NCBI GenBank assembly: GCA_049976445.1
Contig: JBMFIF010000002.1
Span: 5,115 to 69,114 of the forward strand
Length of the DNA stretch: 64,000 nt
From: Thermoprotei archaeon
GTDB lineage: Archaea; Thermoproteota; Thermoprotei; Gearchaeales; WAQG01
Reading direction: 5' to 3'
Translations under genes and position numbers: made by a program
The notes under the pieces: generated by a model
Database searches by the model: none
What the model saw: only the letters and a program-made list of their open reading frames with translations
Told to the model about the DNA's origin: nothing
Shown: piece by piece, positions 10,227 through 60,738 of the stretch
How positions within the stretch are numbered: the first letter of the stretch is position 1
Layout: each line of letters opens with the position of its first letter

Positions 10227-12443
<2,217 letters not shown>

Positions 12444-12468: not shown

Positions 12469-12690
12469 AAATTATGTGCTTTGTTGCATAATTCGTGCAT
12501 GATTTTGTGGAGCGTTTCACACATTCCCCCAAATTTCATGATACTTACTGATGTGGTTTTATGTATGCTAGTTAGGAGTACTCATTAAAATTGTGAGAAA
12601 ACATCATCAAACTCTCAACACACAAGAATCCTATACATAAAAAACACATCAAAAACACATCAGAATTATGCAACAAAGCAAAATTATAAA
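12469..12690. mobile_element. MITE-like non-coding element with terminal inverted repeats
   Basis: Left end aattatgtgctttgttgcataattc (12470-12494) and right end gaattatgcaacaaagcaaaatt (12663-12685) are inverted copies. The interior carries aaaaacacatca x2. A related right end occurs at 60.62-60.66 kb. Confidence 0.4.
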
Positions 12691-26433: not shown

Positions 26434-26529
26434 TTAACGGGAATAAGCAAGACGCTCATACAAAAAAGAAGAAAACCAACAGAGCAATACATAAAGATAC
26501 AAGGCGTGTTCTCAAGCATGACTAATGAT
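26434..26529 (+). pseudogene. ghost fragment homologous to the 3' end of porB
   Basis: Translates to LTGISKTLIQKRRKPTEQYIKIQGVFSSMTND, compared with real porB LTGPSKILIDKNRRKSIEQYIKIQGRFSHMTDE (25145-25243). Hand alignment gives roughly 70 percent nucleotide identity over about 96 nt with one codon gap. Confidence 0.55.
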
Positions 26530-26672
26530 AAAAGAAGGACAAACTTCACCCTTCAGGGTGGAGTAAATTTAAATACTCAGACACACTATACTCTACAGTA
26601 GCACCCATAAAGGGGTGTAACCCTCAAGACCTCGGGGAACCCTCGCACCTTCAGGGCGGGGAAGAGGTCAGA
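26526..26672 (+). repeat. tandem/nested IS200/IS605 right-end-like relics (tnpB-tail motif)
   Basis: tgataaaagaaggacaaacttcacccttcagggtgg (26526-26561) and ccttcagggcggggaagaggtcaga (26648-26672) are separated by about 86 nt. Joined, they equal the single copy at 35195-35243 on the opposite strand. Confidence 0.5.
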
Positions 26673-35194: not shown

Positions 35195-35243
35195 CTGACC
35201 TCTTCCCCACCCTGAAGGGCGAAGTTTGTCCTTCTTTTATCAA
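35195..35243 (-). repeat. IS200/IS605 right-end-like relic, inverted copy of the 26.5-kb relic
   Basis: The reverse complement reads tgataaaagaaggacaaacttcgcccttcagggtggggaagaggtcaga. This matches 26526-26561 plus 26648-26672 almost base for base. Confidence 0.5.
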
Positions 35244-37802: not shown

Positions 37803-37902
37803 TTATACTCAAGAAGATACTAATGAAATTAAAGAAACATTACTAAAAATTAATACCATGGTCAATGAACCGAAAAATAGCTCGATGATACTTAAAACAA
37901 TA
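37803..37902 (+). repeat. direct repeat DR-A, copy 1 (about 100 nt)
   Basis: ttatactcaagaagatactaatgaaattaaag...aatagctcgatgatacttaaaacaata aligns with 40488-40590 (about 80 percent by eye). It includes an ATG plus 16 codons ending in a stop here. Confidence 0.6.
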
Positions 37903-40487: not shown

Positions 40488-40590
40488 TTATACTCAGGAA
40501 GATATTAATAAAATTAAAGATAACTCACTATCAAAAATTGGTATGATAGTTAATGAGCTGGCGAATAGTTCGATGATACTTAAAACAATA
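40488..40590 (+). repeat. direct repeat DR-A, copy 2 (about 103 nt), forming the 5' end of the permease ORF
   Basis: See 37803-37902. An IS right-end-like relic (gaagtcctaagctttaaagggcgagaagatcat, about 40425-40457) lies just upstream. Confidence 0.6.
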
Positions 40591-54729: not shown

Positions 54730-55842
54730 ATGGAGTTGTATTATGGAACACCTGAAGAAGCCGGATTAAATAAGGTACGATTAGATAAGATTCATGAGTT
54801 TATGAAAAAATACGTTAATGATGCCTTTCCAGGTGCTGTAATACTTATTGCGCGTAAAAGTGTAATTGCATTTCATGAAGCATATGGCAGCTCACAGATT
54901 ATACCAGTAAAAAGAGAAATGACAAGGGAGACAATATTTGATCTAGCATCTCTTACTAAACCTCTAGCAACATCAATAATAACTATGAGACTAGTTGAAG
55001 ATGGTCTTATAAATCTAAGACAAAAAATTTCAACAATATTTGATGAAATAGGGAAAGATGAAATAAAGCGCGAAATTACATTATGGCATTTGCTCACTCA
55101 CACATCTGGGTTACCTGCATGGGAACCTTTTTACAAAGGCTTTAAAGACAAAAAAGAAATAATTAAAGCTGCACTTAGCGCATTTCCTTCAAGCAAACCC
55201 GGTGAGAAATATACATATAGTGATCTAGGCTATATTATTTTAACTGGTATTGCAGAAGAAGTTTCTGGTAAAACATTTGACAAATTATTCGAAGAATATG
55301 TAGCATCACCATTAAGCCTTAAAGATACAATGTTTAATCCACCGGATTATTTAAAATCCCGCATAGCAGCTACAGAATTATGCGAATGGAGAGGAGAAGT
55401 TTTAGTTGGTTCTGTTCATGATGAGAATGCATATGCAATGGGTGGTGTAAGCGGTCATGCTGGACTTTTCTCAACAGCATTGGATATCGCTAAGATAGCA
55501 CAAATGATGCTTAACGGTGGAATCTATGGATCAAAAGAAATCTTATCTAGATCTTCCGTTCAGATTATGATAAAAAATCATGTTAAAAATTTAGGTGCTG
55601 GTTATGGTTTAGGGTGGATGATAAATAATGCCCCCAATGGAACATCAGCTGGAGATCTGTTTTCTAAAGAATCTTTTGGACATACTGGCTTTACAGGAAC
55701 ATCTCTTTGGGTTGATCCGGAAAAGGAGTTAATAGCAGTTTTACTTACTAATAGAATACATCCCTCAAGACAAAATACAAAACTTATAGAACTAAGACCA
55801 AAAATACATAACCTGATAGCATCAACTTTAACAAGATATTAA
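54730..55842 (+). CDS. beta-lactamase-fold serine hydrolase (class C / esterase / D-aminopeptidase-like)
   Basis: SxxK (SLTKP), YSDLGY (Y-x-N equivalent) and HTGFTG (KTG equivalent). AGGTGA SD precedes the ATG, 8 nt after the GH3 stop. Confidence 0.75.
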   Translation: MELYYGTPEEAGLNKVRLDKIHEFMKKYVNDAFPGAVILIARKSVIAFHEAYGSSQIIPVKREMTRETIFDLASLTKPLATSIITMRLVEDGLINLRQKISTIFDEIGKDEIKREITLWHLLTHTSGLPAWEPFYKGFKDKKEIIKAALSAFPSSKPGEKYTYSDLGYIILTGIAEEVSGKTFDKLFEEYVASPLSLKDTMFNPPDYLKSRIAATELCEWRGEVLVGSVHDENAYAMGGVSGHAGLFSTALDIAKIAQMMLNGGIYGSKEILSRSSVQIMIKNHVKNLGAGYGLGWMINNAPNGTSAGDLFSKESFGHTGFTGTSLWVDPEKELIAVLLTNRIHPSRQNTKLIELRPKIHNLIASTLTRY

Positions 55843-55865: not shown

Positions 55866-56150
55866 GTTGGTAGTTGAATCATTTTAGGATAAATTTTATA
55901 CTGTTTTAAGAAATGATGGGTATGAATTGGTTCATACTAATCTGGTTCCACTACCGTTCTAGAGGGAAAAGAAATCAAATGCATAAGAGGACCCTACAAT
56001 CATATCAGGAGGAAGCTCCAGAAGAAGGGACTCCTAAAAAAGGATAGAGGAGGCATGAGCCCTCTTGAACTGGCAAATGAGGTTGGAGGATAAAGCCCCC
56101 AGCTGAACATCAGAAGCTCAGCCTTTTAGGAGTAGCTCATATAATCGACA
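55866..56150 (+). mobile_element. non-autonomous IS200/IS605-derived element: repeat DR-B copy 1 plus tnpB-tail relics
   Basis: 55866-55953 matches 60517-60605 and contains the hairpin gtatgaa-ttgg-ttcatac. 56000-56140 contains ...gaactggcaaatgaggttggaggataaagcccccagctgaacatcagaagctcagccttttaggagtagctc (tnpB-tail pattern). Confidence 0.45.
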
Positions 56151-56204
56151 TTATTGTGTATAATGAATCTCAGTACTTAAGCTCACCAATTTTTCTATAA
56201 TTAT

Positions 56205-56576
56205 TTAATGTTGTTCATTATTGAGAAGGAATTCAATGTATTCTTTTATTACTGTAGCATTATTTCTTTCTTTGTCTTTGGTTGCATAAAGTAATGTTAT
56301 GCTATTTTTTTGTTTTATTATCTCGATTAATTTTTGTAATGAAGGATTATTTTCTAATTCTTTAATATACCTTTTTTTAAATTCATTCCATTTAGCGGGA
56401 TCATGAGAAAACCATTTCCTTAAATCATTTGAAGGTGCAATATCTCTAAGCCATAAATCTATTTTTGATTTCTTTTTGCTTAATCCTCTAGGCCATAGTC
56501 TATCTACTAAAATTCTGTAACCATCATCTTCAGATGGTTCTTCGTAAATTCTTTTTATTTTAATCATTTTTCTCAT
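56205..56576 (-). CDS. DUF488 (YeaO-like) protein
   Basis: IKRIYEEPSEDDGYRILVDRLWPRGLSKKK...WLRDIAPSNDLRKWFSHDPAKWNEF matches the DUF488 signature. Confidence 0.7.
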   Translation of the reverse strand: MRKMIKIKRIYEEPSEDDGYRILVDRLWPRGLSKKKSKIDLWLRDIAPSNDLRKWFSHDPAKWNEFKKRYIKELENNPSLQKLIEIIKQKNSITLLYATKDKERNNATVIKEYIEFLLNNEQH

Positions 56577-56711
56577 TAAAAAAGTGAATTCTCATCTAAA
56601 TATTTTTGACGGGCATTAAATAAAAATCATCATTAACCATTATTTGAGTGTTAAATCAGATAATATTAAAATTGATTAGTTAGATAAGTGAGTTTTGAGA
56701 TTTTTATTAGA

Positions 56712-57284
56712 TTATTGTACTTTAAATAAAACATCTATGATCTTTTGTATATATTCATAAGGTTGCTCTACGCGTTCAGCAAAATCCATAGAAATAACAT
56801 AATAAAATAAATTTCCAAGGAATATTTTTAAATAAAACTCATCGATCATTTTTCCAGTTAGGTTCTGTATTTTTTCTTTTAATTTGGTATAGTTTGAGTG
56901 ATGAATTTTTTTGAAGGTTTCTTTAATTTCACTGTATCTATTTGCTATTCCTATGGAATAAAGGAAAAGTTTTCTTTCAATGGGGTCATTGTATTTTAGA
57001 ATATATTTTAATGCTAGATCATTAAGCATTTCTTTAACATCATTATAATGTTTTTCTATTACATTGTTTAATACTTCAACTGGTGAAACACTGATAGCAA
57101 TCTCTTTGATTAATTGCTCTTTGCTTGTAAAATATGTATAAAATGTGCCTTTGGAGAGTTTAACTTTTTCCATTATTTCATCTACTGTAGTCAAGTCAAA
57201 ACCTTTTTCAGCGAATATTTGACGTGCAGCCATGATGATTAATTTCTTTTTTTCGTTATTGCTATTCCTCATAATCCTACACAT
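56712..57284 (-). CDS. TetR-family transcriptional regulator
   Basis: N-terminal HTH AARQIFAEKGFDLTTVDEIMEKVKLSKGTFYTYFTSKEQL followed by a helical ligand-binding domain. Confidence 0.8.
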   Translation of the reverse strand: MCRIMRNSNNEKKKLIIMAARQIFAEKGFDLTTVDEIMEKVKLSKGTFYTYFTSKEQLIKEIAISVSPVEVLNNVIEKHYNDVKEMLNDLALKYILKYNDPIERKLFLYSIGIANRYSEIKETFKKIHHSNYTKLKEKIQNLTGKMIDEFYLKIFLGNLFYYVISMDFAERVEQPYEYIQKIIDVLFKVQ

Positions 57285-57312
57285 AATTTAGTTCTGCATA
57301 GTTATATACTTT

Positions 57313-57332
57313 TTGGCTAACTAGTCAGTCAA
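57313..57332. promoter_or_regulatory. 20-bp imperfect palindrome, candidate TetR operator
   Basis: ttggctaactagtcagtcaa matches its own reverse complement at 16 of 20 positions. It lies in the 88-nt divergent region between the TetR gene and the radical SAM operon. Confidence 0.4.
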
Positions 57333-57372
57333 AAATATAAGTATCTTTAAAGAAATATATAAGTGAGAAATT

Positions 57373-58896
57373 ATGGGTAATACTAATGGTTCGAATTCAA
57401 TGGTTAATGCTATAGAATCATTTAAGGGTATTGTAGATAATCCATTGAGTAAGTATTTATTAAGATATTTAACTGGTTATTGTGAGAAGGATCATGAGAA
57501 TCGGTTAGAGGTTGCTCTTGAACTTTACTTAGGAATTAGGAAAGATGCTTGTTTTTCTTGTCGATCAGCTTCTAAGGTTGTTAGTTACATTGTTAAAAAA
57601 GGTGCAAAGAGTTTTGGAGTTAGTGAGGATCAATTAAAAAGTACTATGAAAGATTCGTATTGGAGAAGAGGTCTTATTAGTGTACTTAAAGGTATAGCAT
57701 TTTTTGGTGTTCGCAAGCCGTTTGTACCAGGGGCTCCGTTTCAAGTCGTATGGAATATAACCAAAGCGTGTAATATGAACTGTTTGCATTGTTATGAAAG
57801 CGCTGGCATAAAGGGTAATGATGAACTCACTTCTGAACAAATTCATCAGGGAATAGATATACTTGCTGATGCTGGCGTAACTATCTTAGCGTTTTCTGGA
57901 GGTGAGCCAACAATACATCCTAATATAGTAGAATTCATTAGTCATGCTCACAATAGGGGAATGTACGTAGCTATTGCTACTAATGGTTATGTTTTAGCCA
58001 ATAAGTATGTTATAAGAAAATTAAAGAGTGCAGGTTTAGGATATGTACAGATTAGTCTAGATGGTCTGAATCCAAACACTCATGACTCATTTAGAAGGGT
58101 GAAGGGTGCTTGGGAACATGCTGTTCGTGCAATAAAAAATAGTATTGAGGAAGGATTATTTGTTGAAGTAGCTACTACTGTTACAAAATACAATATTAAT
58201 GAAATACCTGAAATGATTAAGTTTGTCAGAAATCTTAAAGCTAATTGGTTTATGTTATATAATTTTGTCCCTACAGGGCGTGGGAAAGAGATTATAGAAA
58301 GTGATCTTTCACCGAGAGAACGTTTTGATCTTTTAAAATTAGCCTATTCAGAAACAGGTGATGGTGGTTTGCAAGTGCTTTCCACAGCTCCTCAGTATGC
58401 TGCTGTTGCGCAAATGTTTAATAAGAATGGTAAGAATATAATACCAACTCATTTCTATAATCCTGAATATAATGATCCAAAAATACGTCAGTTAGCAGAA
58501 TTTATTGGTGGTTGTGGTGCTGGGAGGTTTTATATATCGATCGAGCCAAATGGAGACATATATCCATGCGTATTCTTTCCACATGTAGATGAAGTAAAAA
58601 TCGGTAATTTGTTAAAAGATGATTTCGAAAAACTTTGGAGGGAACATGAGTTATTATGGAAATTACGAAATAAGGATATTTTAGAAGGATTCTGTGGTAA
58701 ATGTGCGTTTAGATATACATGTGGGGGGTGTCGAGCTCGTGCATATAATTATTTTGGCAACGTATTAGCACCTGACCCAGGATGCATTTTTAATTCTAAA
58801 GAATGGAATAAATTAAGGTCTGAATTGCTTATTAAATATCATGCAGAGGAAACACCAGCAGGTAATATTCTCATAAGAATAAATGATACACCATGA
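57373..58896 (+). CDS. radical SAM enzyme with C-terminal SPASM-type auxiliary cluster domain and about 110-aa Cys-containing N-terminal extension
   Basis: CNMNCLHCY (Cx3Cx2C), SGGEPT. SPASM cysteines CGAG...GDIYPC and [17 protein letters not shown]. The N-terminal region holds C..(22)..CFSC. Confidence 0.8.
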
Positions 58897-60341
58897 CGCG
58901 CATTATTCTCATAAATCCTATAGATAGAACTCAGATCACTAATAGGCTTGGACTAAAAGCACCACCACTAAATTTAATGTACCTTGCGTCTGCGCTTGAA
59001 AAAGCTGGATTCTATGTTAAAATTATAGATGCTAATCTTTATAATATACTACCGCATCAAATAGCAAGAGTAATAAAAGGGTTTAGACCTGATATTATTG
59101 GTTTAACAGCTGCAACCGCTACCATAAAAACTGCTTTACATTATGTATCAGAAATCAAAAAGGCTATATCAAACGTATTTACCATAATAGGTGGACCTCA
59201 TGTTACTTTTCTTCCAACAGAAACATTGAATATGTCAAAAGATTTAGATGCGGTAGTTATAGGTGAAGGTGAAGAAACCATCGTCAAGATAGCAGAATCT
59301 TATGAAAAAAGTAATCCGGAATGGCTTTCTAACATAAGAGGAGTGGCTTATAGGATAAAAAATCATGATTCAAGTAAAATAAAAATCACACCCCCAAGGC
59401 CTTTTATTAAAAACTTAGATTTAATACCATTCCCGGCTCGTCATTTAGTACCGTTTAACGAATATAAGCTGTACAACAAGGATACACCCATAGGTAGTAT
59501 GATTACAAGTAGGGGTTGCGTTTTTGCATGTAATTATTGTTCATCCTCGCACCTGATGGGAAGAATGTTTCGAGCACGCAGTTCAAAAAATGTAGTTGAT
59601 GAAATCGAAGAATTAGTATACAAATACAATGTTGATACAATCGAATTTATTGATGATATTTTCACTCTAAACAAAAAACGTGCATTAGAGATTGCTAAGG
59701 AAATACGCTCTAGAAAAATTGATATAAACTTTGTTGCATCATCTAGAGTTGATACTATAAACCGTGAATTATTAACAGAATTAAAAAAAGCTGGGCTTTC
59801 AACAATGTATTATGGTGTAGAATCAGGTTCAGAACGCGTTTTAAAATTAATGAATAAAAGAATCACGTTATCACAAGCGGAAAAAGCCATAAATGAAACT
59901 AAAAACATTGGTGTTAGTACACTAGCATCATTCATACTAGGTTATCCAGGTGAAACTCTTAATGAGATGTGGGCCACTATAAAATTCTCTATAAAACTTA
60001 ACCCAGATTATGCACAATTCTCCATACTCACACCATATCCTGGGACACCAATATACTATGAACTTAAACAAAAAGGATTAATCGCTACAGAAGATTGGGA
60101 TAAATACACAGTATTAGACCCAGTTATAGAATATGAAAAATTAGGATTAAGCAAACACATAGTCTCAAAAATGCTCAGAGAAGCATATTTAAGATTTTAT
60201 CTAAGACCAAGATACTTATTAAAACGAATAACAATGTTAAAGGCTCTAATATATACAATGATCAATACTTATATCTTACCTATTTTTCAACACAAAGACT
60301 CATTAGGTTGGTATAAGGACCTAAGCACTCATCACGATTGA
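58893..60341 (+). CDS. B12-binding-domain radical SAM enzyme (class B, COG1032-like)
   Basis: N-terminal Rossmann-like B12-binding region (IILINP ... [23 protein letters not shown] ... GEGEETI) then [11 protein letters not shown] (Cx3Cx2C). 4-nt overlap with the upstream radical SAM gene. Confidence 0.8.
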
Positions 60342-60516
60342 AGACAGAAGATTTTCACTCCTAAAATGCTCACCAATCTGTTGTCACTCCTTTAAACCTT
60401 CATTATAGAAAACTGTTCAAAAATATTACTGATAGAAATTTAATGCTTTTTTACATAATTTTTGTCCCTTAATCTTCATAAAGTGATGATGAATCTTTCA
60501 TCGTTGAGCTTATTTA

Positions 60517-60665
60517 TTGGGTAGTCGAATCATTTTAGGATAAATTTTATACTATCTTAAGAAAAGATGAGTATGGATTGGTTCATACTAACCTGACTCC
60601 ACCACATATTTATCAAGTAGCATTTTTCAAACTACAACACACACAATTATGTAGCAAAGCAAAAC
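60517..60665 (+). mobile_element. repeat DR-B copy 2 fused to a MITE-type right end
   Basis: 60517-60605 matches 55866-55953 (hairpin gtatgga-ttgg-ttcatac with a G-U-compatible change). 60625-60662 caaactacaacacacacaattatgtagcaaagcaaaac resembles the right end of the 12.5-kb MITE. Confidence 0.45.
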
Positions 60666-60738
60666 TTAATTAATCTTTATAAATTGTTTACGATATCTAT
60701 TTATTCATAAAATGATAAATTCTCTTGAGGTGTTTTAA

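Follow-up and report, generated by a model that had tools for sequence, protein, structure and literature searches.

Do two direct repeats standing on either side of four genes mark those genes as a mobile cassette? The question is raised by a 64,000-nt stretch of a Thermoprotei archaeon genome (contig JBMFIF010000002.1; hereafter the window, meaning the whole stretch that was analysed), in which an initial annotation had read a pair of short repeats as the ends of a unit comprising genes for DUF488, a TetR-family regulator, a SPASM radical SAM (rSAM) protein and a B12-binding rSAM protein. We found that the repeats are two copies of an 86-nt sequence, that one of them lies inside a complete miniature inverted-repeat transposable element (MITE) for which close relatives hold an exact empty site, and that these relatives carry the rSAM genes in the same order without the repeat. 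The reading we favor, with a probability of roughly 0.68, is that the repeats are dispersed MITE-like elements, independently placed beside genes that were already in place.

The repeat copies and the MITE around one of them

The features on which the argument turns are as follows; coordinates without a contig name refer to the window.

55869-55955, + strand: repeat copy A, 86-87 nt, with imperfect 25-nt terminal inverted repeats (19/25)
55920-55937, + strand: hairpin in copy A, GTATGAA-TTGG-TTCATAC
60436-60443: left target-site duplication, 8 bp, AAATTTAA
60444-60661: MITE of 218 bp with ends TGCTTTTTTACATAATT (60444-60460) and AATTATGTAGCAAAGCA (60645-60661), copy B inside
60520-60606, + strand: repeat copy B, nested in the 218-bp MITE
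60571-60588, + strand: hairpin in copy B, GTATGGA-TTGG-TTCATAC
60662-60669: right target-site duplication, 8 bp, AAACTTAA
12477-12680: sister MITE of 204 bp with perfect 17-nt ends TGCTTTGTTGCATAATT and an 8-bp duplication (AAATTATG / AAATTATA), without the 86-nt unit
L008:7-209 (metagenome contig), opposite orientation: MITE copy of 203 bp with the same ends, without the 86-nt unit

Copies A (55869-55954) and B (60520-60605) lie on the same strand with a spacing of 4,651 nt and align end to end without gaps over 86 nt, 76/86 positions being identical (88%; E ~5e-27 by local blastn). This agrees with the initial annotation, which had counted about 10 mismatches and had also singled out the conserved hairpin; we recovered the hairpin on the + strand of both copies, with A-U to G-U as the sole stem difference between them. 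Copy A starts 26 nt past the stop codon of a beta-lactamase-family gene. In pattern searches allowing up to 3 mismatches, two blocks of the repeat (27 nt and 25 nt) had two occurrences each in the window and none in shuffled windows. Neither these searches nor a covariance model built from the repeat copies and run with its filters off brought up another copy in the 64 kb.

A third copy, C, was detected on the minus strand of a metagenome contig (L008:2035-2120). It is 93% identical to A and 91% identical to B and has identical sharp boundaries. It is flanked by a divergent FAD-oxidoreductase-like gene on one side and genes for small membrane proteins on the other, shows no link to radical SAM genes, and has a MITE of the 60444-60661 family 1.8 kb away (L008:7-209). 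The three copies share sharp ends in unrelated flanks. The 25-nt terminal inverted repeats match imperfectly at 17/25 positions in B and 18/25 in C (the latter counted by hand), compared with the 19/25 of A; a match this good did not arise in any of 20,000 shuffles of A or B. A small protein encoded by the unit was considered and rejected: the ATG frame, 44 codons long in A, is down to 9 codons in B and to 5 in C, leaving no conserved open reading frame (ORF). The copies most likely represent a dispersed family of small, non-coding, palindrome-like sequences, each with two hairpins inside and with ~25-nt terminal inverted repeats that match imperfectly.

Searches beyond the window extended this picture as far as the collections allowed. 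A metagenome scan with an invariant 20-mer returned 16 matches, only one of them real (L008); the collection does not include the window's own JGI contigs and is therefore silent on copy number. A 22-mer invariant in all copies had no match in a GTDB-based genome collection, which holds no close relative, the closest match there to the B12 rSAM protein being at 52% (Methanomassiliicoccales). Viral contigs, phages and plasmids gave no match to the repeat or to the tnpB relic described below. GCA_049973215.1, one of the metagenome-assembled genomes (MAGs) labelled 'Thermoprotei archaeon', and the near-identical contigs L001-L007 and L069 all have the same arrangement with both repeats. In one of these, L004, an apparent insertion upstream of copy B proved to be a run of N, that is, a scaffold gap. 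When copy A was compared between the window, L001 and L007, strains that are otherwise identical, the same three hairpin-arm positions within 55905-55912 varied (GTTTTAAG, TTCTTGAG, GTCTTGAG). The L007 variant equals the version in copy C, a match that suggests gene conversion between copies or a mutational hot spot.

The initial annotation had described a MITE-type end after copy B, related to the element at 12.5 kb. This was correct and could be extended to a complete element with both ends, whose 17-nt arms are 88% complementary and differ at 2 positions each from the ends of the 12477-12680 element. The family comprises three copies of 203-218 bp, all short and non-coding (two in the window and one in L008). 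Relatives at this locus include the sister lineage L065/L066 (GCA_964615525.1 and ERZ1669417), with ~92% nucleotide identity to the window, and L067 (GCA_038881895.1), with 81-87%. At the position of the MITE, L065/L066 have an exact empty site with the single sequence TAGAAATTTAATTAATC, and the window minus the 218-bp element and one duplication copy aligns seamlessly to it. Homology to the window resumes at 60661/60662 in both L065 and L067. No insertion sequence (IS) with ends matching the MITE was found in the window or in the relatives' loci examined. The MITE with ends TGCTTTGTTGCATAATT and 8-bp AT-rich target duplications is a new, cleanly defined family in this Thermoprotei lineage.

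Gene order in relatives and the left junction

Between and beside the repeats lie the following features.

55990-56170, + strand: probable tnpB 3'-tail relic, G+C-rich and frameshifted, with a core at 56042-56119
56205-56576, - strand: DUF488, 123 aa (Pfam), 26% GC
56712-57284, - strand: TetR-family regulator (Pfam), divergent from the rSAM pair
57373-58896, + strand: SPASM radical SAM, 507 aa (Pfam: radical SAM at residues 128-285, SPASM at 381-444)
58893-60341, + strand: B12-binding radical SAM, 482 aa (Pfam), its start overlapping the stop of the SPASM gene

Pfam bore out all four gene calls of the initial annotation and placed GH3 and beta-lactamase-family hydrolase genes on the left and metallophosphoesterase (Metallophos) and UbiA prenyltransferase genes on the right. 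The composition of these genes gave a split result: DUF488 is atypical (26% GC, z = -2.4), whereas both rSAM genes are typical.

We then compared gene order with the relatives. In L065/L066, the SPASM rSAM, B12 rSAM, Metallophos and UbiA genes follow one another as in the window, L065 starting inside the TetR region. In L067, the order is Peptidase_S13 and TetR on the - strand, then SPASM rSAM, B12 rSAM, an IS, Metallophos, UbiA, Rce1-like, alcohol dehydrogenase (ADH) and HTH_45, which is the window's right-hand order. The IS, composed of HTH_17 and tnpB on the - strand, stands between the B12 rSAM and Metallophos genes, and homology to the window covers 56725-60343 and begins again from 60661. 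The covariance model found no copy of the 86-nt repeat in L067, nor in any other of L024-L032 and L065-L067. Since L065 and L067 share the right-hand order without the repeat, the right junction is ancestral to the three lineages and older than copy B. The genes are thus present where the repeats are not, and the presumed cassette does not move with them. Together, the empty site and the synteny in relatives indicate that the four genes are not one unit bounded by the repeats.

What is conserved is a smaller group. DUF488 is missing beside TetR in L067 and in L024-L026 (rSAM 85% identical). In L024-L026, TetR-rSAM-rSAM stay together, with a cation-efflux gene on one side and a further radical SAM gene on the other. 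The conserved module is therefore the trio of TetR, SPASM rSAM and B12 rSAM, not four genes. More distant relatives show other neighborhoods: the trio stands elsewhere in L024-L027; in the samples of L024-L026, an alcohol dehydrogenase gene directly follows GH3 and beta-lactamase, and in L068 an ABC transporter lies upstream of Metallophos and the trio is missing. The trio changed its neighborhood at a node deeper than the one at which the repeats came in, and within the clade its adjacency to Metallophos-UbiA-Rce1-ADH has been inherited vertically.

The left junction, where copy A lies, is a rearrangement breakpoint with tnpB debris that differs in each related lineage. In L067 it is formed by Peptidase_S13. 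In L028, another contig of the same MAG, GH3 and beta-lactamase stand ahead of an N-terminal relic of tnpB and then an intact tnpB, and the module is absent. In L029/L030, homology ends at 55726 inside the beta-lactamase gene, gives way to a 250-nt fragment of a LivF-like ABC ATPase, and resumes at 56652-56696, just past the TetR stop. In this arrangement in L029 (10998-11245) and in L030 (~93% nucleotide identity), the beta-lactamase-family gene is cut to 337 aa and fused to the C-terminal LivF-like ABC-ATPase fragment, which comes from the opposite strand. L029 overlaps at its end with the start of L065 by ~55 nt, yet the two differ upstream, which may reflect an assembly-graph branch or two haplotypes.

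The initial annotation had also recognized tnpB-tail relics after copy A. This is probable: the core at 56042-56119 is 69% identical over 81 nt to L067:9676-9751 on the - strand, a sequence that abuts the left end of the IS of L067, and one frame reads SEAQPFRSS, comparable to the C-terminus EAPSVRVG of the intact L028 TnpB and to EAPNLVRN in the L067 relic. No Zn-ribbon or RuvC part is left in the relic, and tblastn of the intact TnpB against the window returned nothing. Differences between strain variants cluster within the relic. Copy A appears to stand beside it by coincidence rather than as part of one element, since intact tnpB elements in relatives have no adjoining 86-nt unit.

Several further observations concern the IS and the relic. 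Two contigs of MAG GCA_038881895.1 share an IS left end, TTGTCAGCGTTTTCAAAATAGA[C/T]ATGTTT (L028:11136-11165 and L067:9600-9650 on the - strand), one copy following the beta-lactamase gene and the other preceding Metallophos; this sharing suggests that IS-mediated recombination split these loci in that lineage. The possibility that the 86-nt unit is itself the left end of this IS was rejected, as that end reads TTGTCAGCGTTTTCAAAATAGA and is unrelated. A hairpin downstream of the L067 tnpB that shares AGTATGGA/CATACT with copy B was likewise set aside, being a chance-level match outside the IS. Within the tnpB relic (56116-56158, - strand), Rfam gave a weak hit to sR46, a C/D-box sRNA family of archaea, that stays far under the gathering score (20.9 bits against 50; E = 0.0085) and is probably noise.

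Competing explanations for the repeats

Under the dispersed-element reading, each 86-nt unit would act like a miniature non-autonomous mobile element, and copies A and B would have reached their two intergenic regions independently, after the intervening genes. Copy B would have come as cargo of the 218-bp MITE or as an insert nested in it, the MITE having entered between the B12 rSAM and metallophosphoesterase genes with an 8-bp target duplication. Copy A would have landed by the decayed tnpB insertion-sequence tail, at the junction that differs in every related lineage. We infer the mobility of the unit itself, as well as the order in which copy B and the MITE became nested. TATTTAT occurs on both sides of copy B (60511-60517 and 60607-60613) and may be a 7-bp target duplication of the nested insertion.

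Several points weigh against this reading. No matching flanks surround A or C, so that a target duplication is seen at B only, and the family is known from three loci (A, B and C), a small sample. No precise empty site for a bare 86-nt unit was found among the relatives: L065 lacks copy B only together with the whole larger MITE, and all relatives are rearranged where copy A would lie. No parent IS with ends matching the unit was found. With two copies 4.65 kb apart and copies seemingly rare, the pair could instead stem from local duplication. Finally, one-sided base changes in both hairpins keep pairing on the + strand only, a pattern as much in line with an RNA as with the end of a transposon.

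The reading from which the question started takes the repeats as the two termini of a composite mobile cassette containing DUF488, TetR and both rSAM genes, gained as a unit and excisable or duplicable by recombination between the repeats. It is in our estimate very improbable and largely refuted by the empty site. It draws on two direct repeats that flank the four genes in like orientation and have no further copies in 64 kb, on mobile-element debris at both borders, on the atypical GC of DUF488, and on the occurrence of TetR-rSAM-rSAM elsewhere in L024-L027 and of Metallophos without the trio in L068. The debris does stand at both borders, as the initial annotation had said, but the genes that it delimits are not one unit: the rSAM pair lies beside Metallophos without the repeat in L065/L066 and L067 (in L067 together with TetR), the MITE position is exactly empty in L065/L066, and DUF488 is unlinked to the trio elsewhere. 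The third copy has no connection with any such cassette, and the two rSAM genes have typical composition. Recombination between repeats of 86 nt at 88% identity is possible in principle, but nothing that we saw shows it, and no deletion junction or excision variant was present among the few contigs available. The locus does resemble a composite transposon in having two similar elements in direct orientation around a few accessory-looking genes; it differs in that the copies came separately and after the genes, are 88% identical, encode no transposase, and have no relative in which genes and repeats occur together at another site. The debris at the left border also admits the view that the unit forms one end of a tnpB element of the IS200/IS605 type (the left end, or the right end bearing the omega RNA), copy A and the relic being an internally deleted IS and B and C solo ends. 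A probable tnpB tail lies directly after copy A on the same strand, the unit contains subterminal hairpins, and tnpB elements are frequent at the relatives' junctions. We nevertheless consider this improbable. Neither the intact tnpB genes of L028 and L067 nor the L067 tail relic has an 86-nt unit nearby, no tnpB remnant lies beside B or C, and the window contains no tnpB. Moreover, the far end of the relic has no second copy of the hairpin, and the unit has terminal inverted repeats, which members of the IS200/IS605 family are not known to have.

The + strand bias of the pairing leads to another alternative, in which the unit is a structured RNA gene or cis-element on the + strand, with paralogous copies kept by selection, or a portable archaeal promoter. 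The predicted + strand fold is a three-way junction in which an outer stem meets two hairpins, GUAUGAA/UUCAUAC and a G-U-rich one of 10 bp. Its consensus energy is -20.6 kcal/mol, compared with -14.9 kcal/mol for the - strand, and copy A folds with z = -3.8. Seven one-sided changes keep their pairs through G-U on the + strand, several of which would break pairs on the - strand, and the strain variants of copy A differ at the same three positions in one hairpin arm. Copies B and C lie upstream of same-strand genes. The 27-nt block is invariant in all copies and contains GATAAA-TTTTATA, which we take to resemble a B recognition element (BRE) and TATA box facing downstream; the promoter version builds on this motif resemblance and would place the expected start ~25 nt downstream of TTTTATAC. 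On the other side, there are no compensatory double changes: the five distinct sequences show only the 7 wobble-compatible one-sided changes, along with four unpaired cells, and a shuffle control on pairing is uninformative with 5 sequences from which the fold itself was derived. The + strand RNA of copy B folds no better than shuffles (z = -1.5), and its outer stem is broken. Rfam 15 gave no match at the gathering score, and what it returned at E up to 10 was noise. The motifs that resemble C and D boxes are imperfect in A and B and their spacing is wrong, the relatives lack the unit at the corresponding sites, and the conserved 78 nt upstream of Metallophos lie outside the MITE. On balance, we regard a function as RNA or promoter as unlikely. 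A more elaborate version, in which a functional + strand RNA or promoter with the BRE/TATA-like block hitch-hikes in MITEs through this Thermoprotei lineage while the repeat pair permits reversible loss of a probable module for the modification of glycerol monoalkyl glycerol tetraether (GMGT) lipids by repeat-mediated deletion, is a long shot.

Two specific RNA classes were rejected. Archaeal C/D-box sRNAs have C (RUGAUGA), D (CUGA), C' and D' boxes and guides of 10-12 nt. Perfect C-like and D-like boxes occur in copy C only, those of A and B each being substituted, and between the boxes stands a hairpin rather than a guide and D'/C'. A hammerhead-like reading of UGAUGA...CUGA was dismissed on inspection, the core motifs being missing or imperfect and the spacing wrong.

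Among known systems, REP, BIME and ERIC sequences share with the 86-nt unit the form of a small, imperfect intergenic palindrome with RNA stem-loops, a place beside or inside other mobile elements, and a possible role as rearrangement substrates. They are bacterial and usually present in tens to hundreds of copies, and REPs depend on RAYT transposases; the unit is archaeal, its copy number is seemingly low, and no RAYT was seen. Archaeal MITEs include the SM1-SM4 families of Saccharolobus (Sulfolobus) solfataricus (Redder et al. 2001, as cited in PMC10969869). The 218-bp family resembles archaeal MITEs in being short, non-coding and intergenic, and in its terminal inverted repeats, 8-bp target duplications, several copies and empty site; the 86-nt unit resembles them in being short, intergenic and multi-copy with inverted-repeat ends. 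The differences are that no sequence similarity to described families was found in phage, plasmid and viral collections and no parent insertion sequence was found; for the 86-nt unit, they include the lack of a consistent target duplication and of a clean empty site, and a total of three known copies.

The radical SAM module and other repeats in the window

The SPASM protein has an N-terminal extension of ~120 aa and homologues of ~60% identity across anaerobic archaea. Its best matches are to the NirJ/AhbD families, all NCBIfam matches lying below their cut-offs. An assignment as the tetraether synthase Tes was rejected, as the match to GDGT-MAS 7TOL spans only the radical SAM core (E = 1e-13). 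The architecture resembles that of a different lipid enzyme. In the GMGT synthase Gms, which with its partner was described in 2024, an N-terminal helical domain and a bridging region accompany the radical SAM core and the SPASM domain; Gms is close to, yet distinct from, AhbC/AhbD and is often clustered with the B12 radical SAM methylase Gmm (PMC11186832, PMC11214058). The genes in the window resemble this pair in the layout of the SPASM protein (N-terminal helical extension, radical SAM core, bridging region, SPASM domain), the neighboring B12 rSAM gene, AhbD/NirJ as the nearest curated families, and homologues in anaerobic archaea; the likeness is one of architecture and of clustering as described, not of alignment to the characterized Gms (METOK_RS04425, PF0647) or Gmm. 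They differ in having a TetR partner, none being described in PMC11214058 and PMC11186832. TetR, SPASM rSAM and B12 rSAM would thus probably form a membrane-lipid-modifying pair of the Gms/Gmm type with a regulator, and the B12 rSAM protein is a possible Gmm-like lipid methylase. The gene for the UbiA prenyltransferase lies 2.5 kb downstream of the rSAM pair.

Three other repeats were observed in the window. A 36-nt inverted repeat, TGATAAAAGAAGGACAAACTTCACCCTTCAGGGTGG, has arms that are 97% complementary (26526-26561 and 35207-35242); they are intergenic and 8.6 kb apart, with about nine ORFs between them, and may bound a segment that is mobile or can invert, or be paired regulatory sites. 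A direct repeat of 65 nt occurs at 37838-37902 and 40526-40590, its copies 77% identical and 2.7 kb apart. Direct repeats at 11199-11449 and 12024-12274, 825 nt apart inside the ORF at 10233-12443, are consistent with the two AAA+ domains of a CDC48-like ATPase rather than a mobile element.

The repeats at this locus are routine mobile-element debris in an uncultured hot-spring archaeon, and the value of the result is mainly corrective. Direct repeats around a few genes do not make a cassette, and here one empty site in a sister lineage is enough to show that the genes came first. As a by-product, the comparison shows that a module of TetR, SPASM rSAM and B12 rSAM, possibly a GMGT synthase and methylase with a regulator, shifts its neighborhood among close relatives at IS-rich breakpoints.

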